From: Azolla caroliniana
Lineage: Eukaryota; Plantae; Polypodiophyta
Reading direction: 5' to 3'
Assembly: GCA_043228905.1 (NCBI GenBank)
Contig: JBHGNT010000001.1
Location: forward strand, 19,530,001-19,594,000
DNA length: 64,000 bases
The notes beneath the pieces are model-generated. The model saw nothing but the letters and a program-made list of their open reading frames with translations, did not search any database and was not told where the DNA came from. Numbering within the stretch: the first letter of the stretch is position 1; each line of letters starts with the position of its first letter. Below are positions 20,941 to 64,000 of this stretch, one piece after another. The translations under genes were made by a program, and so were the position numbers.

Positions 20941-21355
20941 TGTTGCCCGGTCAGAAGAGCAAGGACAAGTGGGAAGGCGGAATCGGATCGGATAATAGGA
21001 AGTAAATAATAGTAGAATTATTATTCGGAGGGACGGATCCGGTACAATTGTACCGATCCGGATCCGGTACAATTGTACCGATCCGGATCCGGACCGATTC
21101 GGATGTCGATTGCCTAAGCGCACCGATTGTAACCTTGCCGGATGCCTATAAAAGGATCTGATGATTTGTAAAGTGTTTTGACGGAAGCAATACAATAGTG
21201 ATTATTGCGTATTTATCTATATCTCGTATTGTTTGCCGTCCGTGCTTAATTGTAATAATCTTATGCGTGTAACCTAGCATCCAATCCTTACCACCCCTTT
21301 GGAGAAGTGTCGGATAGACACCTGTGTTGAGGCTAGTCCGGCCAGACAGACAACA
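20941..21355 (+). repeat. 5' LTR of Gypsy F
   Basis: Repeat of 38742-39117 plus a 25-bp tandem duplication and the terminal CCAGACAGACAACA. Confidence 0.93.
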
Positions 21356-21361
21356 CTATTT

Positions 21362-21371
21362 TGGCGACCAC
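21362..21371 (+). promoter_or_regulatory. PBS of F, probably tRNA-Arg
   Basis: TGGCGACCAC is complementary to the ...GTGGTCG-CCA end of plant tRNA-Arg (tRNA sequence recalled). Confidence 0.7.
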
Positions 21372-21389
21372 GATTCCTGCAAAGTGCAG

Positions 21390-21884
21390 ATGACAACCGG
21401 GGGATGGATGTCTAGACCAAACGACGACCACATCACCGAACGAGGGAGACGATACACCGAACGCGAGCAACGACGGGAAGCCCTGCAGCAAGCCGTCGAC
21501 GAGATCCGGCGGGATCGGTCATTCTCCAAAACTCTTCGGAGAGTCGCAGAAGAAGCACTGCAGTTCCGGGTTCTGCAAATCCCCGACGAAGGCAGTAGCA
21601 TAACAAGCCTGCAAGAGGCGGAAACGATACTGCAGACGCTCGCCGCGGGCGACGGGGACTCGGAAGCATTCGCAACACTTGAGGCGGAGTCGGAAAGCGA
21701 CGGAAGCGTTGCATCCCGGTATAAAAGCAGCCACGACACACCAAACGACCGGGAGGACGAGGGGTCGGAAGACTCAGTAACACCGGTGCCAGAGGAAGAA
21801 ATAACCCTGGAATTCGGTGACCGGCAACCGCCGAGGAAGGCTGACCGGATACCGACAACAACCGCGAGGGAACCGAAGGAGCGG
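21390..21884 (+). pseudogene. N-terminal part of F gag, interrupted by G
   Basis: ORF MTTGGWMSRPND... is open up to the G insertion, and its short repeat unit continues at 29821. Confidence 0.8.
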
Positions 21885-22985
21885 TGTCGTGGCGTGGCTC
21901 GCCTAGAAGCGTAGCGTTGCGTAGACAAAGGATAACGTGAAAGTGAGGAAGGAATCACTGGGATTATGGACGGAAGAGACGAAAGAGTAGAGATAGATAA
22001 ATAGTGATCAACAAGATATGACAAGATAGGATATAGAATGATATTTGAAGCAATAAAAGAGATTTATAATTATTTGATAAAAGAGTTACAAAATGATTGT
22101 ACACGTCGTTGAACCTCCGAACTTTGTCTTGCAAGGTAATCGCTCTTCTCTTTCTTGATCGTAGACCACTACAATCTTCACTTCAATATTTTGATGAAGA
22201 TAAGGCTCGAACCACCTCCCTCTTGTTGAGAGTTGACCACCACGACCGCCAAGCTAGAGCTCCACCTTTATGTTGAACTTCTTCCTTTCTCTCTCTATTT
22301 CATGGTATCTCTTATGTAATAAATATTTGATTGATATCTCATACATATCTCCCTTTGATCTTCTCTTTCACCATTTAAATAGGTGCCCCCATGCATATGA
22401 TGCATTGGAGGGTACAAGTCATGCATGTAGTGCATGAAATGCATGTGATGCATGATCGCCATTTGGCGTTCATGCATTACATGTGATGCATGATAAACAT
22501 CTCGCTCATTTGAGCTTTTATGTATGAAACAATATATGCAATAACAATAAACATGAAAATATAATCTTAAAGAGAAAGGGCCTAGCCTAATGGTAGGTGT
22601 GTCGACTTTGGTATATGAGGTTGTGGGTTCAAATCTCAAAATACTATTGAATACAACATACAACTTTATTCTTATATCATGAAGCAAATCCTTTATGTAA
22701 TATAAAGTATATATAAAGTATGCTTTATTTTATGTATATTACTAGTATAGAGTAAATGGTAAGATTTGAGAGTCATAGGGTGGGGTTATTGGTTCAAGTC
22801 CTCTCTTATTCGTGTAATATAATATATTTATCTATATATATATATTATTTTTCTTTGCATATATATAATATTATCATATGTGTTGTTAATATTATCTTTA
22901 TATATAAAACATTATCAAATGTTATTTTAGTTACGTATTTATCTTATTGTAGACTTTTAATGTGAAGCTTTCGTACTTCACGACA
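21885..22985 (-). repeat. 3' LTR of Gypsy G
   Basis: Near-identical to 28720-29820. Confidence 0.98.
22578..22805 (+). promoter_or_regulatory. Two tRNA-like Pol III A-box/B-box cassettes in the G LTR (repeated at ~29413-29640)
   Basis: TAGCCTAATGG at 22583 with GGTTCAAATC at 22626, and TAGAGTAAATGG at 22748 with GGTTCAAGTCC at 22791. Both pairs are spaced 43 nt start to start. Confidence 0.6.
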
Positions 22986-23025
22986 TCCACCCCCTCTAGA
23001 CCTGCACATCCTCCGGCATGTGCCA

Positions 23026-26000
23026 CTATCTTTCATCTTCATGTTGATCTATTGGAGGAGGTTCAAGCTCAAACCTTTTCTTAAATACTTTTATCCTCTT
23101 TCCAGCTACCACGTTTAGGATTAGTGTCCCATCCAATTCACTAAGCTTATAAGTAAAGTTATCATATACTTTTCTTACTATATAAGGCCCAAACCATCTT
23201 TCAGCGAACTTGCGGACGGTGCTATGTTGATTATCTAAACTGCTATCATACACGAGCACCCAATCTCCTTCTTCTATTTTCTCAGGTCGAATTCTATGAC
23301 TTTTATCAAAACGGATTTTATTCTTTAGTCGAGCCTCCTTCAATCGTTGGGCTGCTATTTCTATATCTTCAGGTCGACGCTCTAATTGTTGAATTCGCAA
23401 AGCAAGCAATTCTTCTCTGCTCACCTCTTCTCTCCATGGAATAGATATCCATGACATAATTGATTCTTCTATCGGCATGATGGGCTTTTGGCCAAGTATC
23501 AATTCAGCTGGCATGTATCCTGTTACTGAACTATGAGTTGTTCGATCCGCCCATAGTGCATAAGGTAGCATGCGTGGCCAATCGCTTATTTTACCTTTAC
23601 AGCTTTTCACTATCGCCTTAACTATTGGGCTATGTCCTCTTTCAATCTTTCCATTGGCTTCTGGATTATACGCAGTTGTAAGTGATAATTTGACCCCTAT
23701 TCGGTTGAAGAATTCTCTAGCTTCATCAGAGTCGAGTTCTCCTCTATCTGCAATTATTTTACCAACACACCCGTAACGACATATTACATCTTCTAACAAA
23801 AATTTACATACAGCTCTAGTTGTTTTTTGTCGTAGTGGTCTTCCTTCTACTTGGTTTGTAAGGTCTTCTCTTGCTAGTACTAAATATCGCATTTGACCTT
23901 CCCCAAGTGGCATTGTCACTAGATCGACCATCCATTTATAATGCATTGATGATGAATATGTTGGTTTTAGCTCATCTCGATACCGAATAGTTGAATACCT
24001 CTGGCAAACCTCACAGGTTTCCACAAATTTCGTTACATCTTTGTACATATGTGGCCACCAATACTTTTCTTTCAACTTCATAAATGTCGCCCATATGCCT
24101 CTATGTCCTGCCCACAAACTATCATGGAATTCATTAATTAATTTTCTCTTAATGTCATCCTTACAAATGACTCGAAGAGGATTTTCGGTTGGCCTTTTTG
24201 GACGCCTCCATAAATGCCCTTCATGTAAAAAAAACTTGAATGCTCGTCTTCGAAATTCATTTAATTGTTTCTTCGACCATGATGGGTTGGCTTCTTGAGT
24301 CTTTAGAAAATTTCCTATTTCTAACCATTGACCTTCATACTCCACATCTTTGAACATTATACTTACATTAAACTCATCATGAGGCGTAATAGATTCTTGA
24401 TGAGCAAATTGATGGCTTGTAGTTGCCCAATTCTTATCTTCAGTTTGCATCACCTTTTCATTTATGAACCTTGCCCTTGACAGCATATCTGCAACTGGGT
24501 TGTCTTTTCCCTTTATATGCCGCAATTCTAGGTTCATGGTTCTGATGTATGCAATCCACCGAAGCATTGCAATATCTGGTGTCGTGCAACTTGCTATCAT
24601 TCCAATGAGTGGCAAACAATCTGTTTCAACCACGACATCTGCTCCAATCAAGTAATCTCTATCTGTTTTTAATGCAGTAAGCAAACCCCACAATTCTCGT
24701 TTAACTTGTGCATAGTTTCTTTGTCTTTCATTTAATATCTTTGCTCCAAATCTGATAGCATATCGATGTTGGTCTTCATCTTCTTGGTTGATAACCCAAC
24801 CGATCCCGATTGGGCTAGTATCAACTGTTACTATAATTGGTCGTTCACCTTTGTAGTCTGGTTGACGAAGAACTGGTGCTTTCAATAATGCTTCTTTCAG
24901 CTGTTGAACAACTTGTGTATGTTCATCAGTCCAAATAAACTCCTTTCCTTTTCTTAAAAGTTGGTAGAGAGGATCTGAGACATGTGCAAAGTGTGGTAAC
25001 CAAATATGATAAAACACACAAGCACCCAAAAATCTTCTCACCTCTGTTACCGAGTCGCAAACTTCCTTCATATTTTGTATTGCGTTAATTTTGATCGGTG
25101 AAGGCTTCCTCCCATACCACCCACACATATGACCAACTATTAGAACTTCGTTTTGCCCAAAGCAAGACTTTGTTCCTGATAGTGTCAAATGTACCCGCTC
25201 AAGCTTATTTAAAATACTTTCACAGTCATTAATGTGGTCCATCACAAACTTTCTGCAATCATTTCCAACCATAGTCTCATCTTTCTCTCTTTCTAAGCAT
25301 CCCTTAATAGGAATATCATCTAAAAATGGCATAGTTACCTTTGGGATGTATTCATGTAGAACTTTGTTCATTGCATTCATCATATGAGCAACTGAATTCG
25401 TCGCACCTTGAGGTAGAGTGCACATTCGAACCAACCCAATTGGTGTTTTCATTGTTGTGATGTTGCGACTATCAATTGCTAGTTGAAATTGGTCGTATCC
25501 TGAATATAGGTCTCCCATAGAGTAAATCGCTCTTCCAGCAAACGCTTCCGCAAATTCATCAACGATCGGTCCGATTCCCGCATTTCGGATTGTGACTTTG
25601 TTGACTGGTTGTAGATCTTGAATGAATCTTAGAGAACCATCTTTCTTTGGAACTGTGAACCATCTATTGGAGTATGGTGCATTTGAAGGCTCTAAAATCT
25701 TCATCTTGACTTTATCCTTCAACAACTCCAACAATTGAGGTAATCGAGCTCTCGGTACTGCAATAGGTTTAAAATTCCAAGGAATATGAGGGATAGTAAA
25801 TATTACCATTGGCGTCACCACCTTTGGATTTACACAACCAATCTCCTCAGCTTTGAATGCGAACGCTTTCCCATGCCTAAAGATCATTTCTTTGAAAGTC
25901 ACGATCTCTGATTGCAGAAGAAATTCACCCCTTCCGATTCTCAAGTTATTTATTGTCTCCGAAGTGAAGTGATGTCCGATCTTCTCTATTGGTCGAAGAA

Positions 26001-26487
26001 TAGGCTCGGTTGCTGCTGCCTCCATCTTCTCTTCACTACCAATAGGTAATGGTACTGCAGCAGGTTTGACCTTTTTATCTATTGTTTTGTATTTTGTATT
26101 ACATAAACTTTCTACTTCTTCATATTTACAATTATACCTATCAATCTCATAATACATATCAATTGAGTTTACATGTATCTTTCTAACATTCTCATCATCT
26201 TCTTTCAAATACATTTCTAACTCTTCTAAAGTATTTGCAAAAGAAATTTCTTCCATAACACTTTCAATCTGCTCTTCCATTTCAAGTACTCCATTATCCT
26301 TCAATGCCTGCTGAAACAGATTAGCATTCTTTTTCAAGTTCCTCTTGCATTCATACATCCTAGTCACACATATAGCACCACTTTCAGAAACATGAAATGA
26401 CTTATTCATATGTTGTAATGCCCTATATGAGGGTCTTTTAATAATGGGACTATTGCAACCCTCACTCGCAACAGTCCTAGTCAAAAA
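23026..26487 (-). CDS. Gypsy G pol (RT-RNase H-integrase), uninterrupted; probably entered by ribosomal frameshift
   Basis: 1176-aa ORF with DLYSGYDQF, LPQGATNSV, FLDDIPIKG, VTVDTS, HHCC (H..WAGH..C..C), DRGE..ERGH and WFGPY. No chromodomain. Confidence 0.95.
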   Translation of the reverse strand, partial: FLTRTVASEGCNSPIIKRPSYRALQHMNKSFHVSESGAICVTRMYECKRNLKKNANLFQQALKDNGVLEMEEQIESVMEEISFANTLEELEMYLKEDDENVRKIHVNSIDMYYEIDRYNCKYEEVESLCNTKYKTIDKKVKPAAVPLPIGSEEKMEAAATEPILRPIEKIGHHFTSETINNLRIGRGEFLLQSEIVTFKEMIFRHGKAFAFKAEEIGCVNPKVVTPMVIFTIPHIPWNFKPIAVPRARLPQLLELLKDKVKMKILEPSNAPYSNRWFTVPKKDGSLRFIQDLQPVNKVTIRNAGIGPIVDEFAEAFAGRAIYSMGDLYSGYDQFQLAIDSRNITTMKTPIGLVRMCTLPQGATNSVAHMMNAMNKVLHEYIPKVTMPFLDDIPIKGCLEREKDETMVGNDCRKFVMDHINDCESILNKLERVHLTLSGTKSCFGQNEVLIVGHMCGWYGRKPSPIKINAIQNMKEVCDSVTEVRRFLGACVFYHIWLPHFAHVSDPLYQLLRKGKEFIWTDEHTQVVQQLKEALLKAPVLRQPDYKGERPIIVTVDTSPIGIGWVINQEDEDQHRYAIRFGAKILNERQRNYAQVKRELWGLLTALKTDRDYLIGADVVVETDCLPLIGMIASCTTPDIAMLRWIAYIRTMNLELRHIKGKDNPVADMLSRARFINEKVMQTEDKNWATTSHQFAHQESITPHDEFNVSIMFKDVEYEGQWLEIGNFLKTQEANPSWSKKQLNEFRRRAFKFFLHEGHLWRRPKRPTENPLRVICKDDIKRKLINEFHDSLWAGHRGIWATFMKLKEKYWWPHMYKDVTKFVETCEVCQRYSTIRYRDELKPTYSSSMHYKWMVDLVTMPLGEGQMRYLVLAREDLTNQVEGRPLRQKTTRAVCKFLLEDVICRYGCVGKIIADRGELDSDEAREFFNRIGVKLSLTTAYNPEANGKIERGHSPIVKAIVKSCKGKISDWPRMLPYALWADRTTHSSVTGYMPAELILGQKPIMPIEESIMSWISIPWREEVSREELLALRIQQLERRPEDIEIAAQRLKEARLKNKIRFDKSHRIRPEKIEEGDWVLVYDSSLDNQHSTVRKFAERWFGPYIVRKVYDNFTYKLSELDGTLILNVVAGKRIKVFKKRFELEPPPIDQHEDER

Positions 26488-26490
26488 CCT
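26427..26490 (-). promoter_or_regulatory. Putative programmed ribosomal frameshift signal (slippery site plus H-type pseudoknot)
   Basis: AG_GUU_UUU, 5-nt spacer, 12-bp stem GGACUGUUGCGA/UUGCAAUAGUCC. The loop GUGAGGG is complementary to the downstream CCCUCAU. Confidence 0.75.
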
Positions 26491-28652
26491 GATTATCAAA
26501 ATCATCATAGTCTTTTGGTATTGAATGATCACGAAGCTCTTGCTTGTTCCTCTCATGATTTGGGCGAACTGTCATAAATTGTACAGTTCGTCGTCCATCT
26601 TGGCTACGGATTTTTGCATAGGCAGAACCATTGTCGAGGACTTTGGTCTCCATTCGTACCGCTGTAATGTATGGTTGCCCCAGGATTATTGGATAGGTAG
26701 ATCCTTCCTGCACAAAGAAATGTTGATCTACCTCTATATCACCAATAGTAACCTTTACATTTGGGCATGCACCAAATAAATCTTCCGTGACTGATGTGGC
26801 AGCTTTTACTCGCCAACCATGTTGAGTATCAATTGGCCATCTACCTTTCCTGTAAAAATCAGCACTCATTATATTTATTTCAGAACCATGATCAATAAGT
26901 GCCATCACGGGGTTTGGAACATTTCCAATCTTCACATGAGTCTCAGTAGTGGCTCTTGCCCAACATTTGCGAGAGTAATGGCTTCTTACATCTGTTGAAT
27001 TTATCATTGAGGTTGATGCATGTTGAGAGTCAACAACGATATTGTTTGACTCGTTGCTCACCACTTCATATGCCACCTTCGGGTTTGTCTCTTTAACCTG
27101 CTCATTTACTTGCTTCTTTCTTCGCACAATATCAATTATTTCATCATGAAATTCCTTTTTTGCAATACCTAACACTTCTCTTAGTGTAAATTCTACTCGA
27201 CTGTCTAGTATTCTTGTTTCTAAAACTTTCTTTAAATCTGTATCCTTTTCAATATCAGACATTAATTTGAATGAAGGACCAGATTTACCTTTTTCAACTT
27301 TTGCGTCCATCTCTTTTCTTTTGCTTTCTCTTGTTTCATGCTTTTTGGTTGAGCCAATCTCATCATCCGATCTTTTCCTTTTTTCTTCCACTATCACCTC
27401 ATGCTCTTGGTGTTCTGCCATCTGAGCATAGACCGTCATAGCATCTACTGGAACATCCCATCCAGTGTTTTTCCTTACAGAATCTCCGGCAACACGAAGG
27501 TCTTCCATCTTCATCTTTTGCTTTTGTGCGGTACTTACAACCTTCTCCCAGAATGATGACCGAGATGGCATGTCATCGAGGCGCATTCCTGCCGTTGCCG
27601 AGTAGTACATTGCGGAAGCCTTCTTTGCTTCAGCTTCTTCAAATTTAACCTTAACACCACCATCACCAAAGTTCTTTGTAAGTGGACTTCTAGTTTCAGT
27701 TAAATAAATGTTACCATTTTTCCAATAGACCAAGTCTCGATTTTCCATGTCTTTATATTCCGCACAATCACGTAATCGATGTTCGAGACTATCACACCAC
27801 ATGCATCGAGGTCGAAATGGTTCCCTTGACCTCGAAGTCTGACCATTCTCAAGCTTTGCCACTTTAATTGTTAGATCTTTCATACTTTGAACTAAATCAT
27901 CAAGCAAAGACTCACTCTTAGTTTCGATCATTTCTCGTGGTTGATGGACCATTTCGTGTGATGGTTCTCGACCAAGTCTTTGAACTTCGATGTTTTGCTC
28001 AAGCCGATTTGTAATTCCCACATGTGGTATTTGTAGCATTGCACCATACCTTTGCATTCTTTTCATAAATTTATTACAAGCATTTGTTACCTCATTCCAA
28101 TCTGCAGTTATACCATCCTCAGTATTTGGTACTTCAAGCATGAATTCCAATTCTTTTCTATATCTCTTGTTAACTGCCTGCAAAAATAAAGCAACCTTTT
28201 GCCAAGACAAAGAATTTCTTTCTTCTGGCTTTAAGTGTCCATACATCCTATCAAACTCTTTTTTTTGTGTCAGCCACAGATAACCCTTTATCTTCTTTTA
28301 AGATCCATTCATGAAATGAACGCATAGTAACTCGAGAGAAATCCTCACGAGCATATTCAGACACAAGTGCTTCTTTGAATGCATTCCAATCCAAACTATG
28401 CAATGCTTGTATTTCATGAATTCTATCTCTTAATTCCATGTCCACTAATTTATAAAAGTTTGCTATCATATTGACATCATTTATACCAGACATTTCCATT
28501 TCATCATAATATATATTCACATACTTCGAAATATTTGTGCCATCAAACATACCAATCTTCTCTCGGACTTCTCGTAAGGCATGAAATAATCGATCTTGAT
28601 TCAACTTTTCAATAAACAACATTACCGGATCCATTGTACTCGTACTTGCCAT
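26477..28652 (-). CDS. Gypsy G gag-protease (one extra base in the A8 run at 28259-28266)
   Basis: ORFs 28251-28652 and 26477-28246 fuse if one A is removed (TKKEFDRMYG). Zinc knuckle CMWCDSLEHRLRDC, protease ALIDHGSEINIM and ILGQPY. Confidence 0.88.
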
Positions 28653-28696
28653 GTTGATGTTGATCTTTACTTTAGATGTCTCTTCTACTTCCCCGT

Positions 28697-28714
28697 TTCA
28701 CGTCGGGTTCACCA
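28697..28714 (-). promoter_or_regulatory. PBS complementary to tRNA-Trp
   Basis: The plus strand TTCACGTCGGGTTCACCA equals the last 18 nt of plant cytosolic tRNA-Trp including CCA (recalled). It lies 5 nt from the LTR. Confidence 0.88.
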
Positions 28715-28719
28715 AATTG

Positions 28720-29820
28720 TGTCGTGGCGTGGCTCGCCTAGAAGCGTAGCGTTGCGTAGACAAAGGATAACGTGAAAGTGAGGAAGGAATCACTGGGATT
28801 ATGGACGGAAGAGACGAAAGAGTAGAGATAGATAAATAGTGATCAACAAGATATGACAAGATAGGATATAGAATGATATTTGAAGCAATAAAAGAGATTT
28901 ATAATTATTTGATAAAAGAGTTACAAAATGATTGTACACGTCGTTGAACCTCCGAACTTTGTCTTGCAAGGTAATCGCTCTTCTCTTTCTTGATCGTAGA
29001 CCACTACAATCTTCAATTCAATATTTTGATGAAGATAAGGCTCGAACCACCTCCCTCTTGTTGAGAGTTGACCACCACGACCGCCAAGCTAGAGCTCCAC
29101 CTTTATGTTGAACTTCTTCCTTTCTCTCTCTATTTCATGGTATCTCTTATGTAATAAATATTTGATTGATATCTCATACATATCTCCCTTTGATCTTCTC
29201 TTTCACCATTTAAATAGGTGCCCCCATGCATATGATGCATTGGAGGGTACAAGTCATGCATGTAGTGCATGAAATGCATGTGATGCATGATCGCCATTTG
29301 GCGTTCATGCATTACATGTGATGCATGATAAACATCTCGCTCATTTGAGCTTTTATGTATGAAACAATATATGCAATAACAATAAACATGAAAATATAAT
29401 CTTAAAGAGAAAGGGCCTAGCCTAATGGTAGGTGTGTTGACTTTGGTATATGAGGTTGTGGGTTCAAATCTCAAAATACTATTGAATACAACATACAACT
29501 TTATTCTTATATCATGAAGCAAATCCTTTATGTAATATAAAGTATATATGAAGTATGCTTTATTTTATGTATATTACTAGTATAGAGTAAATGGTAAGAT
29601 TTGAGAGTCATAGGGTGGGGTTATTGGTTCAAGTCCTCTCTTATTCGTGTAATATAATATATTTATCTATATATATATATTATTTTTCTTTGCATATATA
29701 TAATATTATCATATGTGTTGTTAATATTATCTTTATATATAAAACATTATCAAATGTTATTTTAGTTACGTATTTATCTTATTGTAGACTTTTAATGTGA
29801 AGCTTTCGTACTTCACGACA
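28720..29820 (-). repeat. 5' LTR of Gypsy G
   Basis: Adjacent to the PBS and near-identical to 21885-22985. Confidence 0.98.
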
Positions 29821-30752
29821 GCGGATACCGACAACACCCGCGGAGGAACCAACGGACCGGACACCGGCAACACCCGCGGAGGAACCAAAGGTTCTCACAC
29901 CAACGCCAACAACGGACAGAGAGCGGAGGGAACAGGAGAGTCAGTTGGACGACACGATGCCGTACCCATACCCAAAGTACCGGGATGAGGCCGACGCGGA
30001 GGCACACGTGTACGCATTCCTCCAAACATGGGAAGCCAACCATGTCTCCCAAAGACTAATGGAGCCCGAAGCCGAACGATCCAAAATCGCCGAATTCGGC
30101 ATAACCTTAGAAGGACCGGCGGCCCAATGGCACGCAAAGCACTTACCAGGCACCTTTGCCACATTCGATGCCTTGAAGGCCAGATTCCTCAGGTTTTTTC
30201 ACAGACAATTTGAGCAAAGGGAATTGGTCGGGCAGTTCTACACCACCCGGCAGGAAGAGAACGAGACTATGCCACAATTCATCATTCGGTTCCAGACCCT
30301 GCACAGCCAACTGACAAGAGCACCACCCGAAGACGAAGCCAAAGCAGTCTTTCTGGCCGCACTGAAAGAGCCACTTCGAACAATGTGCGGAGTCCTTGAT
30401 TTCCAAACCAGCACAATGGACCAAGTTATTGATCGGGTTTTAGAAATGGACAAGACTAGCCCCTTCTTGTCGATGGGGATGTTACACCGGGCACTCCCAA
30501 AGGAGGAAGACCTGAGGTTCCGACAGGCCTTACAATGCACAACATGCCTAAATTCGGGGCACTCAACAGTGGACTGCACCCTGCGGACACAATGTGTGAT
30601 CTGCAACTCTCGAGCCCATACAACGGACCGATGCGAATATAACCTGTTAAATCGGCAGGCAGCACCGGTTCGACACATAGAACCGCGCAATCAGAACCCG
30701 GACGAGGATCGATTCCGGAGAGACGACCGCTACCAACGCGAACGCGGTAACA

Positions 30753-30987
30753 GATACGCTATGACCGAGAGGAGAGACGCAGAGATAGCTACCCCTGGGA
30801 CCGGTACGACAGAGACGAATCCCCGGAACACGACCGACGCAGAGAAGAGAGGCGACAAGGATACGCTGATACAAGACGCGACAACTATGACCGAGAGGAG
30901 AGACGCAAAGATAGCTACCCCCGGGACCGGTACGACCGAAACGAAGCCCCGGAATACGACCGACGCAGAGAAGAGAGGCGACAAGGG
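30753..30987 (+). repeat. Two ~125-bp tandem units in F gag (R/D/E-rich)
   Basis: CTATGACCGAGAGGAGAGACGCA...GAGGCGACAAGG occurs twice. Confidence 0.9.
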
Positions 30988-33520
30988 AACCGAAATTTCC
31001 GACGGAATCAGAAGCGTGGATTTTTCCGAAGAGAGGAACGTCGGGAGGCAGCAAGGAATGACAACCCAGTATCGGTACCGGATAACCGAAAAACTGAAGA
31101 CGACCGCCGGAGCATACCCAACCTCCAAACCGGGGACAAAGCAGAAACGAGCAACAGTCACAAGGTGTACTGTTATTACTGCCGCAAGGAAGGCCACTAT
31201 AGTAACCAATGCCCAAGCAAAAGCTATGACAAGCAGCCGAAAGTCAACATGGTTACAGCCGAAATAACAGAGGTACAGCAGGTCACAACCCGGTCAAAGG
31301 GAAAGACCGCCGAGTGGGAAGCCCAGGAGGCAATCAGAAAACAAGCGACACAATGGATCAAGGAGGCCAATGAACAGAATGCGGCAGAAGTAAGAGACCA
31401 AAATATGCCAAAAGACGAAGAAATCATACAGCCAGGAGAAAACCCGACGTGGCAAGTGCTACAGGACTGTCAAATCGTGCTGCCGTTAGCACGACTACTA
31501 CAGTTAGTGCCACGATTTACGGCAGACCTACATGCATCCGTCAGCAAACCGAAGCCGACGCCAGCACCAGCATTCTTCTCAAACCCGGAGGAAGGACCAA
31601 CGGTGGTCGATACAAGTAGCCCGGCGATCACGGCAATCGTGAAAGGAAAGGAAATTGCTGGAACGATTATTGACGGAGGCTCCGGGGTAAATGTCATCAG
31701 CCAACAGACATGCAACGACCTGGGCATCCGGGAATGGGAACCATGCCCCTTCTGGTTACGCATGGCGGATACTAGCTCAGTCCGACCGACCGGGCTTATC
31801 CGGGACTTGGAAATAACGATCGGAGGCCACGTATTCCGGATATCGGCCGTGGTGCTGCAGCTGAATGTACAAGGCGCGTACCCTCTACTGCTAGGACGAC
31901 CATGGCTGCGAACGACGCATATCAAGCAGAACTGGCAAAAGAACATGATCACATTCCGGCGAGGGAAAACAAAGGTACGAGTAACGACGCAACCACGGGT
32001 GATCACCAGTAAGGAAGCAACTCCATTGTATGCGGAAAGCATTAACATGTTGGAGGGATTACCAGGCGAGGAAGTCGAGCGGTACCTCGAGGAACACCCA
32101 CAAATCGTCCCACTATTTGAGGTGGATATCACGGCGGCAGTAGAACCGTACATTACGACGCCGGAAGAACCGGACCAAGCGGCGATCCGGGAACTACGAC
32201 AAGCGCAGGAATCCCTAGAGAGGGAAATGACGATATCCCAGAGGGTAAAAGCATCCCAACTCGAGGAGGTGGACCTCGGCACAGCAGACAAGCCCCGACC
32301 GGTAAATGTTGCAAAGGAATTGCCGAAGGAAGAAAAGAAGGCAATGGTAGCATTGTTAACAGACTTCAAGGATGTGTTCGCGTGGTCGTACGAAGACATG
32401 CGAGGGCTGGACCCCCAGCTCTATCAGCACCAAATTCACCTAAGTACGGACGCGAAACCGATTGCTCAATGCAGGTACCGGATGAATCCGAATTATGCGG
32501 CAAAGGTGAAGGAGGAAATTGATAAGCTCCTCCGGGTCGGATTTATCCGACCGGTCAAGCAGGCAACCTGGCTAAGTCCGATAGTGGTGGTCCCGAAAAA
32601 GAACGGCAAAATCCGGGTATGCGTGGACTACCGAAAACTAAATGCCGCAACAGTGACCGATGCGTTTCCACTACCATTTACGGATGGGGTGTTAGATGCG
32701 GTAGCCGGGCACGAAGTTTACAGCTTCCTGGATGGATTTAGCGGCTACAACCAAATACGAATGAACCCGGCCGACCAAGAGAAGACAACGTTCGTGACGG
32801 AATGGGGAGTGTTCGTCGCGGTCGTGATGATGCTCGGACTAAAGACGGCTCCAGCGACCTTCAAAAGGATAATAATGGAAATTTTCGGGGAATATATCCC
32901 CAGTTTTATGCAGGTCTTCCTTGACGATTTCGCGGTCTACAGCCGGCACGGAGAGCATCTCGATCACCTCCGGCTGTGCTTGGAGAAGTGCCGCGAGTAC
33001 CGATTGAGCCTGAATCCGGCCAAATGCGTCTTTGGAGTGGCAAGCGGCAACTTGCTAGGGCACGTGGTGAGTAAGGAAGGAATCGCGGTAGATCCGGATA
33101 AAGTCAAGGCGATTCTCGATGCACCAGCACCAAGTAACGCAAAGGCTTTAAGTCGGTTCCTGGGCCAAATAAGGTGGCATAGCCGGATGATACGGCACCT
33201 CGCGGACTTCGCTACACCGTTACATACCGCCGTACATAGGGTACCCTTCCTATGGGCAGAGACGGAGGAGGAATCCTACAAAGCGTTGAAGGTTATGCTG
33301 TCGCAAGCTCCGGTGGTGCAACCGCCGGATTGGAGTAAAAGCTTTCACGTCTTCGTCGACGCGTCGGACGTAGCAATCAGCAGCGTTCTGATGCAACTCA
33401 CAGAGCCGAAATGGTACCGACCGGTGTACTACGCAAGCCGGAAACTCTCAAAAGCCGAACGGAATTACTCTACGACGGAACGCGAGGCATTGGGAATGGT
33501 GTATAGTGTCACAAAGTACA

Positions 33521-33619
33521 GGCACTATCTGCTCGGAAGGAAGTTTTCCTTCCATGTCGACCATTCGGCACTATTTGCTCGGAAGGAAGTTTTCCTTCCA
33601 TGTCGACCATTCGGCACTA
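33521..33619 (+). repeat. 46-bp tandem duplication frameshifting the F RNase H
   Basis: GGCACTA occurs at 33521, 33567 and 33613. Confidence 0.93.
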
Positions 33620-35304
33620 CTCTACCTGGTCTCGAAGGCATCCCTGACGGGAAAAATTGCACGGTGGACACTGCTACTATAGGAATTTGAATTCGACATT
33701 TTCCACCGACCCGGGGCGCAGCATGCGGTAGCGAACTATCTAAGCAGACTCGAATCCGGAGAAGCAGGGGACGGCGTCCAGGATGAGTTTCCCGACGCCG
33801 AATTGTTCCGGATCACGACGAAACCGGCAACGGATACAACGGTAGCCGATGAAGACACATGGCTAACTAAGATGCACCAGTTCCTGAGCACCGGAGTTCC
33901 CCCGGAGAACATGGACCGCGATGAAAGGAAAAGGGTAACAGTAAGAAGTAGACATTTCTGCTTGGTTGGAGACACCCTCTATCACAAGGGGGCAGATGGC
34001 ATCTGGAGACGAGCAGTGCGGAGCGATGAGAAGGATCTAATCCTCAGGGAAGCCCACTGTGGAATTGCCGGCGACGCAACCACTCGGAAAATATGGCAGA
34101 GCGGACTGTGGTGGCCGACCACCCTAAAAGATGCCGTGAAGTATAGCAGAGAATGCGATTTGTGTCAACGACTGGGCCAACCCACAGAGCAGGCCCGGAT
34201 GCCACACCACCCGGTCTTGCCCTTAGAGCCGTTTCAAAAGTGGGGGTTGGACTTTGTCGGTCCCTTCAAACCACCGGCAATGCGAACCGGAAATCGGTAT
34301 GTCATAGTGGCGACCGACTATTGCACCAAATGGGTAGAAGCAAAGGCCTTACGGGACAACACGGCCGCATCCACGGCAAAGTTTCTGTACGAATGCATAT
34401 GGTGCCGGTATGGATGCCCGATCGAGCTTATAAGTGACCAAGGAGGACATTTTCTCGGGCAGGTAGTAGAAAGCCTGACGTCATTTTACGCGGTGGTACA
34501 TAAAAAGAGTACACCCTACTACCCTCAAGCTAATGGACTAGCGGAATCAACGAACAAAACTCTGCAGAACATCCTACGAAAAATCGTCAACGAGAACCGG
34601 ACCGACTGGGATACGAAATTGCAAAGCGCGCTATGGGCGTACCGAACAACGTACAAAACCAGCATCCGGACAACCCCGTTCCGACTAGCATTCGGGTTAG
34701 AAGCGGTCATGCCGGTAGAGTTCCAGATCCCCAGCTTACGGATTCAGGTGAAGGAGCGCTTAAGTGAGAACGAGTCCGAACGAATCCGGCTGGCAACGCT
34801 GTTGGAATTAGAGGAAAACCGAATAGCCAGCTTACTACAACTCGAACTGGAGCAAAGGAGGAGAAAAGCCTTCGTGGACCGACACCGGTGTGGCAATGAA
34901 AAGGAGTTCGAAGTCAGGAAACCGGTGCTACTATTCCAGACAAGGATGGGGAACATGCCGGGAAAGTTGCGGTTTCGATGGACCGGACCGTTCTGGATCA
35001 CCAAGGAGTACAATGGGTCGTATCAGCTCGGCACGTTGTCTGGAGATGTCATCGGCAAGTGGGCAAATGGATTTCGGCTAAAGCCGTATAAAGGAAATAT
35101 GCCAGCCAACCCGTTCAAGCGAAACCCGGAAATCCGGCAAGATGAGGAACCGACACCGACAGACGCTGCTGAAGATATTCGGACCGAGGAAGAACCGACA
35201 CCGATACTGACGAAGACTATCCCGGAAAACCAACAGAAGGATCCGGTATCCACACGAACCGACCCGAACAAATCGGGGGGGACCAGCAAATGACATGGTC
35301 CAAG

Positions 35305-56530: not shown

Positions 56531-57241
56531 TATTAATCCTCTTAGTCTCTAGTACTACTCCTTACACTTCCACTACCCTCCGAAGCACTCTGGGAAATGA
56601 CTGGTCCTGTCGAATCTCCTCTACTGCTTTTTGGTATGCTTGTTGTTTCCACAATCAGTTTTCTAGTCTCTTATCCCATTCGGTTACTAGGTCGTTGGTT
56701 TGTCTAGACGACATCCATCCTCTGTCATTCACTGCTTCTTGCAGAACCTTGTGGTCGTCAAATTGTGTTTATTTTGTACTAGATCTTAGTCACAAACACA
56801 TAGGTATTATATACCAAAATACAATGTGATCGGAGGTATGGTAATAATCCACGTATTGTCAATCTGGATAGCATATACAAGTCAACAACAAACATTCATA
56901 CACGCGTAAGATAGAACAATTTAGTACACAAGATGGCAAGTACCCAAATCTTCCAATTATATTATATTACTTGTGCCCCCGAACAATACAATCCGGACTC
57001 CTTATATAGGTAGCCGGTTCTGATACCAAATGGTGTCCATCCAGATTGGTACATCGTTCTGGATCTAAGACCCCTTAACATAATATATCTTCGTATCTAC
57101 TAATATTCCTAATTATCCTAATTATTCGGTATACATATTCACACTCTTTCCGAACTGTCTTCCGAATCTACAATACTTCGGCTCTACTTCTCTGGGCAAC
57201 ACAGAGGTGATACGACTGAAGACGATTTAGGGATATATTTG

Positions 57242-57424
<183 letters not shown>

Positions 57425-57439
57425 GTAAATAAAAAATAT

Positions 57440-59135
57440 ATATATATAGATAGATAGAGAGAGCTAGGGCAATAGGTGTGAATATCGTGATTAACAAAGA
57501 AATACAAATAAGATAAAATTATAGTAGTGAAGTGTGTGAGTGAAGATATAAGTGCAGTGAACTATGTGTGCTACGGAGGTCAAGCTAGTGTAACAGTTGA
57601 CTTGTGAATCTAATCTATTAAGATCGATGACTCAGCACAAACCAAGCGTTGGAGTTTTCTCTCTATTTTTCTCTTGCTTTCTATGTATATCCTTATATTG
57701 TGATGAAGATCAGACCAACGTTGTGGCCTTTGAGTTCTTGTTGTACACACTCTCATATAGTGAGTGTATTTCTATTTAGAGTCTATGGGCTCTCATGGTT
57801 TTTTACCATTTAGGCTTTCCACGTTAAAACTCTGTGTCTCTATCATTGTTATTTCTATTTCTTGTTGCTTTTATTTGTGTTTGCTTGCCGGTCGTAGCCG
57901 ACCCCATATTCACGATAAACTGGTATCAGAGCATAGGAATATGGACAAATCCCTTTGTGGGATGTTCAAGCTTACCGGCCCAAACTATTCAGTTTGGAAG
58001 TCGAAGATGAAAGATATGTGGTAGGCAAGGATCTGTGGTTGCCGGTACAATATGGCAAGGACAAACTTGACAAGATTGATGCATCGACTTGGGAAGTCAT
58101 GCGTCTAAAGACAACAACATATATTAGATGTTTTATAGACATGAGTCTATATAACAACATCAACGATGAGACACAAGGAAATGACTTGTGGAAGAAAATA
58201 GGGAGCATGTTTGAGACAATTGTTTTTTTAAATAGAGTCTTAGTCTTTAAGAAGATAGTGAGATTGAGATATCAAGATGGCTCAAGCATAGCTGAGCACA
58301 TGAATGCCTTTCAAGGGCTTATTAATCAAACCACCTCTCTAGAAGTACCTCTAGCTGATGAGGTATTCGCCTTGCTGTTGCGAGGCTCTCTTCTAGATAG
58401 CTAGGAGATGTTTGTGGTGACTTTGGGTAACTCAGCACCGCAGGGGAAACAACCGACCCTAAACATGCTGAAGTCGAGCTTGCTAAATGAGGAAGCTCGA
58501 CGAAAGGATAAAGAATCCAACTCTAACCATAAGGCCTTAGTCATAGAAAGTGACCCTAGTAGAGGGAGGGGCAAGCAGAGAGGCCCCCAAAATGAAAACA
58601 TGTCCAGATCTAGGTTGAAGTCGAAGGGAAGGCTCATGTGTTTCTATTGTGGGAAACCAGGGCACTTCCAGAAGAACTGTTGGCTTTACAGAAAGGACAA
58701 AGGGGGACAATTCTTCACTATGGTAAAAAATGTATCCCATGTTCCTAATATCATATCGAATATGATATCGGCTGGACGAATGGATAATTAAGGCTCAATG
58801 GTGGTTTTCAAAATGACACGTGGAAATTCTACAAGGGAAACCTGATTGTGGATCGAGCCTGAAAGCAAGATACATTATATGTAATGCATGCATGATTGTG
58901 CCAAGGTGAGGCAAATGTAATGGTTGACATAGCTAGTGAGCTATGGCACTAGAGGCTAGGCCATATGAGCCAAAGAGGAATGAAGATGCTTGTTGGAAAA
59001 GAACTCCTACCGGAGGTGAAAAAGGTGCATCTAGAGAAATGTGTTGATTGCATGGCCGATAGGCAGAACAGGGTTGCCTTTCACCCTAGGCCTTTGATGA
59101 GGAGGAAAGTTGCCTTGGAATTGGTGCAGACTATT
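57440..59135 (+). mobile_element. Truncated Copia (C/Tnt1-like): LTR, PBS, gag, GAG-pre-integrase
   Basis: PBS TGGTATCAGAGC at 57921-57932. Gag MFKLTGPNYSVWK and CFYCGKPGHFQKNC. The LTR shares a GGGCTC.CATGGTTTTT motif with C. The left boundary is approximate. Confidence 0.85.
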
Positions 59136-62449: not shown

Positions 62450-63785
62450 CCGAATAGCTAATTACCTACCTCAGAATATGCCCATAGCTAACTAGCTACC
62501 AGTAATAGCTAATTAGCTCCCTAAGTATATCAAAATAGCTAATTAGCGGAGTATGGTATTAGCTAATTAGCTACCACTTAGCTACTGTACTAAACTATGG
62601 TAGTAGCTAATTAGCTACCACTTAGCTAATGTATTAAACTATGGTAGTAGCTAATTAGCTACTCAACTAAAGTTTGATAGTAGCTAATTAGCTACCACTT
62701 AGCTAATTAGCTACTCAACTAAAGTTTGATAGTAGCTAATTAGCTACTATACGAAACTATGGTAGTAGCTAATTAGCTACCACTTTGCTAATTAGCTACT
62801 CAACTAAAGTATGGTAGTCCCTAATTAGCTACCACTTAGCTAATTAGCTATTGTACTAAACTATGGTAGTACCTAATTAGCTACCACTTAGCTAATTAGC
62901 TATTGTACTAAACTATGGTAGTCCCTAATTAGCTACCACTTTGCTAATTAGCTACTGTACTAAACTATGGTAGTCGCTAATTAGCTACCTCTCAGCTAAT
63001 TAGCTATTGTACTAAACTATGGTAGTCACTAATTAGCTACCACTCAGCTAATTAGCTACTATACTAAACTATGGTAGTAACTAATTAGCTAATGTACTAA
63101 ACTATGGTAGTAGCTAAATAACTACCACTTACATAATTAGTTACTTTGCTAAAGTATGGTAGTAGCTAATTAGCTAACTGGTAGCTAATTAGCTACTGTA
63201 CTAAACAATGGTAGTAGCTAATTATCTACCACTTAGCTAATTAGCTATTGTACAAAACTATGGTAGTAGCTAATTAGCTATTGTATTAAACTATGGTAGT
63301 AGCTAATTAGCGAAGTGGTAGCTAATTAGCTACTACACTAAACTATGATAGTAGCTAATTAGCTACCACTTACCTAATTAGCTATTGCACTAAACTATGG
63401 TAGTAGCTAATTAGCTACCACTTAGCTAATTAACGATTGTACTAAACTATGGTAGTAGCTAATTAGCTACCAATTAGCTAATTAGCTATTGTACTAAACT
63501 ATGGTAGTAGCTAATTAGCTACCAGTTAGCTAATTAGCTACTGTACTAAACTATGGTAGTAGCTAATTAGCTACTGCACTAAACTATGGTAGTAGCTAAT
63601 TAGCTTCCACTTAGCTAATTAGCTACTCAGCTGAAGTATGGCAGTAGCTAATTAGCTATTGTAGTAAACTATGATAGCAGCTAATTAGCTAAGTGGTAGC
63701 TAATTAGCTACTCAGCTAAAGTATGGTAGTAGCTAATTAGCTACCACTTAGCTAATTAACTACATGTTAGGTAATTAGCTGCTAC
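62450..63785. repeat. Palindrome-rich satellite built on TAGCTAATTAGCTA
   Basis: Dozens of copies alternate with CCACT and TTGTACTAAACTATGGTAG spacers. Confidence 0.97.
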
Positions 63786-64000
63786 ACTACAACCATAATA
63801 GCTAAATAGTTTCCACACTTTATACAGCTTACCTAATTCGCAATAATGGAACTAATTAGTTACACTATGGTCACAAGCAACAATTTTACTTGTGTGTTTT
63901 CTCCACTCATCTAGGAGAGCTATACTACAATCCCCCAAACAGAATGCAGCAATGCGACATGCATATTTAAAACAAATGATATGGTATGTGTGCTGGCATG

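Follow-up and report, generated by a model that had tools for sequence, protein, structure and literature searches.

How does a retrotransposon make its replication enzymes when the frame that encodes them is neither in line with Gag-protease nor one base back from it? This question is raised by a Ty3/Gypsy element on the minus strand of the window (the whole 64,000-nt stretch of DNA analysed here), in which the Gag-protease (Gag-PR) frame stops shortly after the heptamer G_GUU_UUU and pol continues in the +1 frame, which is also the −2 frame. An earlier note on this DNA had interpreted the arrangement as a −2 frameshift driven by a downstream pseudoknot. That interpretation is supported by the comparisons reported here, −2 rather than +1 being the direction that we infer. 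The junction itself, judged from its sequence and that of its relatives, is a real and conserved recoding signal with an inferred mechanism.

The element and its gag–pol junction

The element is complete and occupies positions 29820–21885. A blastn search of the element against the window delimits a 5′ LTR of 1101 bp with TG...CA ends (28720–29820, minus strand), and the same search together with the sequence places the 3′ LTR at 21885–22985; the pair shows 3 mismatches in 1102 aligned bases. A 4-bp target-site duplication, CCGC, lies outside the LTRs (29824–29821 and 21884–21881). The primer-binding site (28699–28714), which begins with TGG 5 nt past the 5′ LTR, is presumably a match to tRNA-Trp, and a polypurine tract is found at 22986–22997. 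The domains follow the order PR-RT-RH-IN, the protease being recognised by a motif region common to the homologs and pol by the Pfam domains RVT_1, RT_RNaseH, Integrase_H2C2 and rve. A Pfam search detected no chromodomain in the element, and blastn of the element found no second copy in the window. The features identify it as a young Ty3/Gypsy LTR retrotransposon. It is nested, with its 4-bp duplication, in a plus-strand stretch upstream of the gag (29801–31267) and pol (30751–35293) of a second Gypsy element, whose ORFs lie in different frames and extend over an A-rich repeat region (surroundings, 21318–35293). Farther away, a 52/33-bp tandem array and a long TAAA microsatellite are located at 62541–63858 and 57233–57440.

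The 5′ part of gag (28251–28652, minus strand) is out of frame with the remainder at an A-run (28266–28259), whereas the homolog P0001 is a single continuous protein of 724 residues. The earlier note had cautioned that this copy carries a homopolymer indel in gag, and it does. With LTRs that differ at only 3 of 1102 positions, the indel is either a recent mutation or an assembly error. The remainder of gag (DUF4100) and the protease, which contains the DHGSE motif common to the homologs, form one ORF (26477–28297) that ends Q-V-F-D-stop.

The 3′ end of this ORF reads CAG GUU UUU GAC UAG, with the stop codon at 26479–26477. The slippery site, AG_GUU_UUU (26483–26490), is in the 0 frame, where GUU would occupy the P site and UUU the A site, and it lies within the overlap with pol. 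The pol ORF extends over 1181 codons from stop to stop (26571–23026) in the +1/−2 frame relative to Gag-PR; from the predicted −2 entry (26484) it offers 1152 open codons encoding a linker, RT, RNase H and integrase. The −1 frame meets UGA directly past the slippery site, so that two sequential −1 slips were rejected as a route to pol. In the two loci that share this arrangement (L001 and L002, described below) the −1 frame stays open for 0 and 5 codons past the site, compared with 0 in the window. A spacer of 5 nt (26482–26478) separates the heptamer from the first stem of the pseudoknot, which starts with the G that closes the Gag-PR stop codon. All these elements of the junction, namely the end of Gag-PR, the frame of pol, the immediate UGA and the 5-nt spacer, are present as the earlier note had described them. 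Upstream of the Gag-PR stop, the pol frame of L002 is open for no more than 26 nt, and the switch of frame is therefore confined there to the last 26 nt before the stop.

Frame of pol in copies and relatives

A frame that differs from that of ordinary −1 elements could stem from an assembly error or from a single copy in which an ordinary −1 site lost one U, and the homopolymer indel in gag shows that this copy is not free of such changes. Contigs assembled from 8 of 24 listed sequencing runs were inspected, among which X20 is probably DNA, and the listing named no RNA run with this sequence; assembled contigs lose rare variants, and one of the runs may be the source of the window. Seven of the eight runs cover the site (5 organism labels, 5 studies; run X12 has no cover there), and in none of them is an indel listed at the run of five U, as opposed to the six U that the earlier note had named as the observation that would overturn its reading. 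Contigs are able to reveal homopolymer indels, because the one-base difference at the gag A-run shows up in all four runs examined for it, at 26% to 100% of contig depth (106.5 of 106.5, 584 of 2248, 613 of 998 and 1616 of 1641 depth units; organisms A and B, four studies). In the first four runs the contigs with a variant at 26508 extend 28–41 bases to both sides, so they cover the U run, and in organisms C, D and F the junction is spanned by ungapped single contigs at depths of 624, 2431 and 37.

The protein ends agree with the contigs. In the nearest cluster (96% identity) all 6 members that reach the C-terminus end in QVFD, among the 15 of 35 members listed, and the next cluster (78%) ends in QVFY. 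The V-F-stop end expected of a six-U copy is absent among the listed proteins with a classified C-terminus. The same frame and spacer are found in L001 and L002; the frame is not a one-copy error, and an origin in misassembly or in one damaged copy is almost certainly wrong.

The DNA of more distant relatives was taken from 80 of 169 metagenome hits and from two contigs in prokaryote records, 82 loci altogether. A pol frame could be called in 62 of them; 19 had no RT match downstream and one ended early. Pol is in the −1 frame at 58 of the 62 loci, behind G_GAU_UUU (53), G_GAU_UUC (3) or G_GGU_UUU (2), so that the canonical arrangement with the downstream gene in −1, which the window does not have, is the prevalent one. 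These counts overstate independence, as many loci are near-duplicates, mostly from one assembly series, and 32 are left after dereplication of the long pol frames at 98%. Two loci, L001 and L002, have an intact pol in the +1/−2 frame behind AG_GUU_UUU, and together with the window they thus combine the arterivirus-type motif RG_GUU_UUU with a product in the −2 frame. Two further loci that scored as +1/−2 are broken copies of the −1 type and were discarded: in L068 the pol frame does not open until 202 nt past the stop, and in L075 there is a frame break upstream as well as a stop inside pol. Among 56 distinct junctions, the spacer to the core of stem 1 is 5 nt in all three with GUU and 6 nt in 42 of the 53 others, the remaining 11 having no match to the anchor motif.

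The −1 loci (within L003–L081) thus share a signal past the protease: G_GAU_UUY, mostly with a stop right after it, a 6-nt spacer and a covarying pseudoknot, at 58 loci. No description of this family-wide −1 signal was found in the literature searches. The earlier note was right that the frame breaks after the protease, but this is not special to the present element, as the whole family breaks there, mostly by −1. Alpharetroviruses provide a precedent for a shift after the protease. In a subtype (L023, L028, L050 and L054) the 0 frame is five codons longer, runs through the 5′ arm of stem 1 and ends P-L or P-F; two of the four loci use G_GGU_UUU.

The Gag-PR proteins give a wider view of the same ends. 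In the 120 proteins listed of 245 hits, 104 end 15–45 residues past the last conserved motif: 68 with D-F-stop (one from Riccia), 29 with F-x-x-x-P-L/F-stop, which is the end of the subtype and includes proteins of Physcomitrium and Adiantum, 4 with G/N-F-stop and 3 with other ends. The named relatives are from a moss (Physcomitrium), a fern (Adiantum) and a liverwort (Riccia). No relative was found in viral contigs. Loci L081 and L082 come from records labelled as cyanobacterial and Streptomyces assemblies and are probably stray eukaryotic contigs; L081 has the −1 signal and a pol frame of 907 codons. One protein, P0192, ends W-V-F-P-stop and is sister to L075 in the protease tree (SH-aLRT 98), which has W-D-F-P at the same place (690–820). 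Such an end is the pattern expected from a second loss of the same base, but P0192 could also come from a dead copy. P0192 is not encoded in any fetched locus, the best match being 64%.

In the RT tree a branch with a support of 100/100 sets the window, L001 and L002 apart from the other loci. This group consists of three sequences, two of which are 94% identical, and hence of two deep lineages represented by DNA. Its pol is open after the Gag-PR stop for 1150 codons in the window, 1150 in L001 and 1097 in L002, where pol is 53 codons shorter and divergent at its end, near the end of the contig. The pol of L002 is 81% identical to that of the window. Over 1095 codons of this pair dS is 1.13 and dN/dS 0.094; the linker before RT (codons 1–125) gives a dN/dS of 0.23, and the comparison of the window with L001 a value of 0.127 for pol. 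Third-position bias follows the 0 frame to within about 20 codons of the site and takes up the pol frame about 20 codons beyond it, and the frameshift signal is an island of DNA identity between the two coding stretches. Pol is therefore under purifying selection in the +1/−2 frame across a dS of about 1.1.

The lost base might instead have silenced pol, leaving a non-autonomous branch whose copies are mobilised by −1-type relatives. Such relatives are common in the same collections, and the window copy was inserted recently despite the interruption of its own gag. However, a pol that has remained open past the stop in all three loci, at a dN/dS of 0.09–0.13 since their divergence, requires that it was expressed after the change of frame, so that pol has apparently long been expressed in the shifted configuration and the non-autonomous alternative is very unlikely.

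With D-F-stop or the subtype end spread across the wider protease tree, the parsimonious reading is that −2 would be the derived state. The −1 loci as a single clade are not rejected (p-AU 0.076), in a test rooted on the other Gypsy RT of the window, which is a very distant outgroup. The proposed origin is a single step: CAG_GAU_UUU with a 6-nt spacer, the form found in L009 and L012, would lose one base, the A, and become CAG_GUU_UUU with a 5-nt spacer and pol in −2. In an ungapped alignment the five-U run is equidistant from stem 1 in both types and the codon phase alone differs. The one-base relation to −1 relatives that the earlier note had raised as a caveat is thereby retained, with the difference that the missing base is most simply the A of GAU and not a U of a six-U run. 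Site, spacer and frame are not three independent lines of evidence, because one event changes all of them.

The downstream pseudoknot

Stem 1 of the window is a helix of 12 bp with two G-U pairs (26477–26466 with 26458–26447), present in both the minimum free energy (MFE) and the centroid structure; with its G-rich loop it covers 26447–26477. A 91-nt fold has a z-score of −2.79, and 3 of 200 shuffled sequences are as stable. The 7-nt loop GUGAGGG (26465–26459) is complementary to CCCUCAU (26433–26427), located 13 nt 3′ of stem 1, and the A/U-rich 13-nt loop and this 3′ arm of stem 2 together span 26427–26446. An equal pairing of the loop was obtained in 0 of 1000 shuffles of the downstream segment for the window, and in 0 and 6 of 1000 for L001 and L002. 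Stem, loop and complement are exactly those given in the earlier note. In the MFE structure of the window a small hairpin (26434–26421) competes with stem 2; its 3′ arm is absent from L002.

The earlier note had also proposed that both stems be examined for covariation. The structural alignment contains 44 junctions: 40 that match the anchor motif, together with the window, L003, L009 and L012. Omitted were L023, L044, which is cut short, L062 and L072, in which the stem is disrupted, and 8 junctions lacking the motif. Stem 1 is paired in 82% of the alignment cells, compared with 23–36% in slid controls. Eight of its 12 pairs change on both sides, in 49 cells against 16.7 after shuffling and with none of 500 shuffles reaching that number, although kinship among the sequences inflates these counts. 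Pairs 9–11 are open in 21–32 of the 44 rows, whereas the 8 pairs below them hardly ever fail to form; the constant core is thus the lower 8 bp, and the top 2–4 pairs vary among relatives, which refines the original description. Stem 2 was scored with a register chosen per sequence, because the connecting loop measures 11–16 nt. On average its best helix scores 15.8, compared with 11.3 after shuffling and a best of 12.4 in 1000 shuffles. One position of the stem 2 loop arm forms G-C in 37 rows and A-U in 5, including all three GUU loci. In contigs from other organisms, stem 2 shows changes of G-U to A-U and of U-A to U-G, and an A-A mismatch occurs near the top of stem 1. Stem 1 thus covaries, stem 2 exceeds its shuffles, and the pseudoknot is family-wide; within this selected set of 44 junctions it is a conserved 3′ structure at a fixed short spacer.

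No matching family was found in Rfam, where the two matches had E values of about 2 and were both far below gathering scores. Minor contigs from two DNA runs skip 67 and 32 bases at 26430–26498 and 26478–26511, with depths of 24 and 32 versus about 620 and 2500, and are likely to represent deleted copies.

The proposed slip, its direction and comparison with known systems

Taken together, the junction, its relatives and the structure suggest that a pseudoknot-stimulated −2 tandem slip on AG_GUU_UUU probably yields pol. According to this model most ribosomes would stop at UAG and release Gag-protease. A fraction, halted with the P site on GUU and the A site on UUU by the pseudoknot 5 nt downstream, would slip two bases back. 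The tRNA-Phe would then re-pair fully on UUU and the tRNA-Val would not re-pair on AGG, as in the geometry of PRRSV, the virus causing porcine reproductive and respiratory syndrome, while a slip of −1 would terminate immediately at UGA. The product would be a Gag-protease-RT-RNase H-integrase fusion. After the slip the distance between ribosome and stem 1 would be the same as in the −1 relatives, and the predicted junction peptide would be collinear with their product.

The frame data fit −2 and +1 alike. If the ribosome instead moved forward by +1 on this heptamer, with GUU exchanged for UUU in the P site or UUU for UUG or UUU, and the pseudoknot served as an antizyme-like pause, it would arrive in the same frame. 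By counting alone, a tandem +1 slip in the window keeps 4 of 6 codon-anticodon pairs and a −2 slip 3 of 6, fewer since nothing pairs with the P-site tRNA-Val at −2; moreover, the change from GAU to GUU also betters re-pairing at +1 (2 of 3), L002 has UUU_U, and host and spacing are reported to decide whether the mammalian antizyme pseudoknot cassette directs +1 or −2 (PMC5009743, PMC3458567). Against these points, the A-site codon reached at −2 is UUU in all three GUU loci and AUU in the GAU loci checked, whereas the window, L001 and the bridging contigs read UUU_G, so that tRNA-Phe would land on UUG after +1. A +1 slip at the stop codon would expose ACU, unreadable by tRNA-Asp or tRNA-Tyr, and stem 1 starts inside that stop. 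All relatives of the signal shift backwards, and the +1/−2 product obtained upstream of a 3′ structure by Lin et al. was identified as −2 by mass spectrometry (PMC3458567). A forward slip is accordingly judged quite improbable.

Pol might also be reached without any slip, by splicing with CAG|GUU as donor or acceptor, or by reinitiation at an upstream AUG in the pol frame, in which case the pseudoknot would serve as a helper or survive as a relic. Ogre elements of plants are spliced between PR and RT. In all three GUU loci the site contains CAG|GU and an AUG in the pol frame lies a short way upstream, and 18 of 72 frame-restoring GT-AG pairs at least 60 nt apart are common to the window, L001 and L002. 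Yet 17 of the 18 shared acceptors are AAG or GAG, and the lone UAG acceptor would cost the protease its end and the linker about 85 codons whose changes are biased to the third position. CAG is found also in the −1 relatives L003, L009 and L012. The AUGs of the window and L002 do not occupy homologous positions, and such AUGs are common by chance: a +1-frame AUG of this kind occurs in 17 of 44 distinct −1-type junctions. The slippery site, the spacer and both stems have been kept across a dS of about 1.1 while their flanks drifted, and expression without a slip is considered improbable. Transcriptional slippage on five or six T appears unlikely.

Within the backward slip, the broader proposal is that a natural cis-acting pseudoknot drives −2 frameshifting for the enzymes of a plant retrotransposon, and that the signal arose from a −1 signal by the loss of one base with the element active throughout; on balance we lean towards it. 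The family would then contain a natural pair matched in its pseudoknot, in which pol is in −1 where the spacer is 6 nt and in −2 where it is 5 nt, and this makes the determinants of slip size directly testable with short reporter cassettes. If true, the pair would be an evolutionary demonstration of the mRNA-tension rule, which holds that slip size is set by the length of the spacer, and dozens of −1 relatives would serve as controls. It would also illustrate that a one-base change can shift the frame of an essential gene without killing the element, and P0192 and L075 hint that the same switch possibly occurred twice. For annotators there is a warning that the pol of a plant retroelement recorded as being in +1 may be reached via −2. 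In a 2003 survey, as related in PMC5009743, pol was in +1 in the few plant elements whose gag and pol are separate, and no explanation was given.

Full-text searches, with most subscription papers outside their coverage, returned no report of the window signal or of any natural RNA-structure-driven −2 shift in a retrotransposon. The element itself resembles the Phygy and Selgy non-chromoviruses of non-seed plants (Neumann et al. 2019, PMC6317226), as these are described there, in its PR-RT-RH-IN order, tRNA-type primer-binding site and short, coding-filled structure; the available text of that paper describes no programmed frameshift for these clades.

The signal has in common with canonical pseudoknot-dependent −1 signals a heptamer, a short spacer, a pseudoknot and a stop at or near the site, and its pseudoknot is homologous to that of the 58 −1-type loci. 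The heptamer prevalent in those loci, G_GAU_UUU, is also the −1 site of pea enation mosaic virus (PMC5009743). Unlike canonical −1 signals, the branch of the window is one base shorter, has pol in +1/−2 and reaches a dead end in −1.

The −2 cases given in a review are phage Mu, the arteriviruses and Trichomonas vaginalis virus 1 (TVV1) (PMC5009743), and a 2025 review considers, for −2, arteriviruses and transplanted antizyme (PMC11818727). In the Mu tail chaperone gene (GG_GGG_CGA), TVV1 (CC_CUU_UUU) and antizyme, as in the window, a −2 shift opens the downstream frame (PMC5009743, PMC3458567), and that of antizyme is pseudoknot-stimulated and dependent on spacing. None of the three is a retroelement, however, and mammalian antizyme shifts by −2 only in a foreign host, budding yeast. 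As far as the available text of these sources goes, the known natural −2 shifts are stimulated by protein (arteriviruses) or have no RNA stimulator named (Mu and TVV1; PMC5009743, PMC3458567), and those driven by RNA structure are otherwise limited to engineered reporters and to antizyme moved to yeast.

The closest engineered parallel is the work of Lin, Gilbert and Brierley (2012), in which, on a U6A site, the −2 optimum had a spacer 1–2 nt shorter than the −1 optimum, whether the stimulator was a pseudoknot, a stem-loop or an oligonucleotide (PMC3458567). In the present family, too, a shorter spacer accompanies the presumed −2 shift, 5 instead of 6 nt. Their constructs were artificial and used U6A rather than RG_GUU_UUU, whereas the window signal is natural, uses AG_GUU_UUU and is conserved under selection.

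The closest natural parallel is the nsp2TF signal of the arteriviruses, which has RG_GUU_UUU, a −2 product and a −1 stop right after the site (PMC4937337, PMC7618472, PMC11818727). In PRRSV the site that shifts by −2 is GG_GUU_UUU, directly followed by a −1 stop, and in wheat-germ translation −2 was favoured by shorter spacers (PMC4937337); the arterivirus site is given as AG_GUU_UUUU in a review (PMC7618472). As these sources present it, PRRSV has no downstream RNA structure and needs nsp1beta and a poly(C)-binding protein, acting on CCCANCUCC, which lies about 10 nt downstream. The CCCANCUCC motif is absent from the corresponding downstream place in the window, which has instead a covarying pseudoknot 5 nt downstream, and the predicted product is a set of retrotransposon replication enzymes. 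On sequence grounds, the window signal would work like an arterivirus slip site and is not a member of that system.
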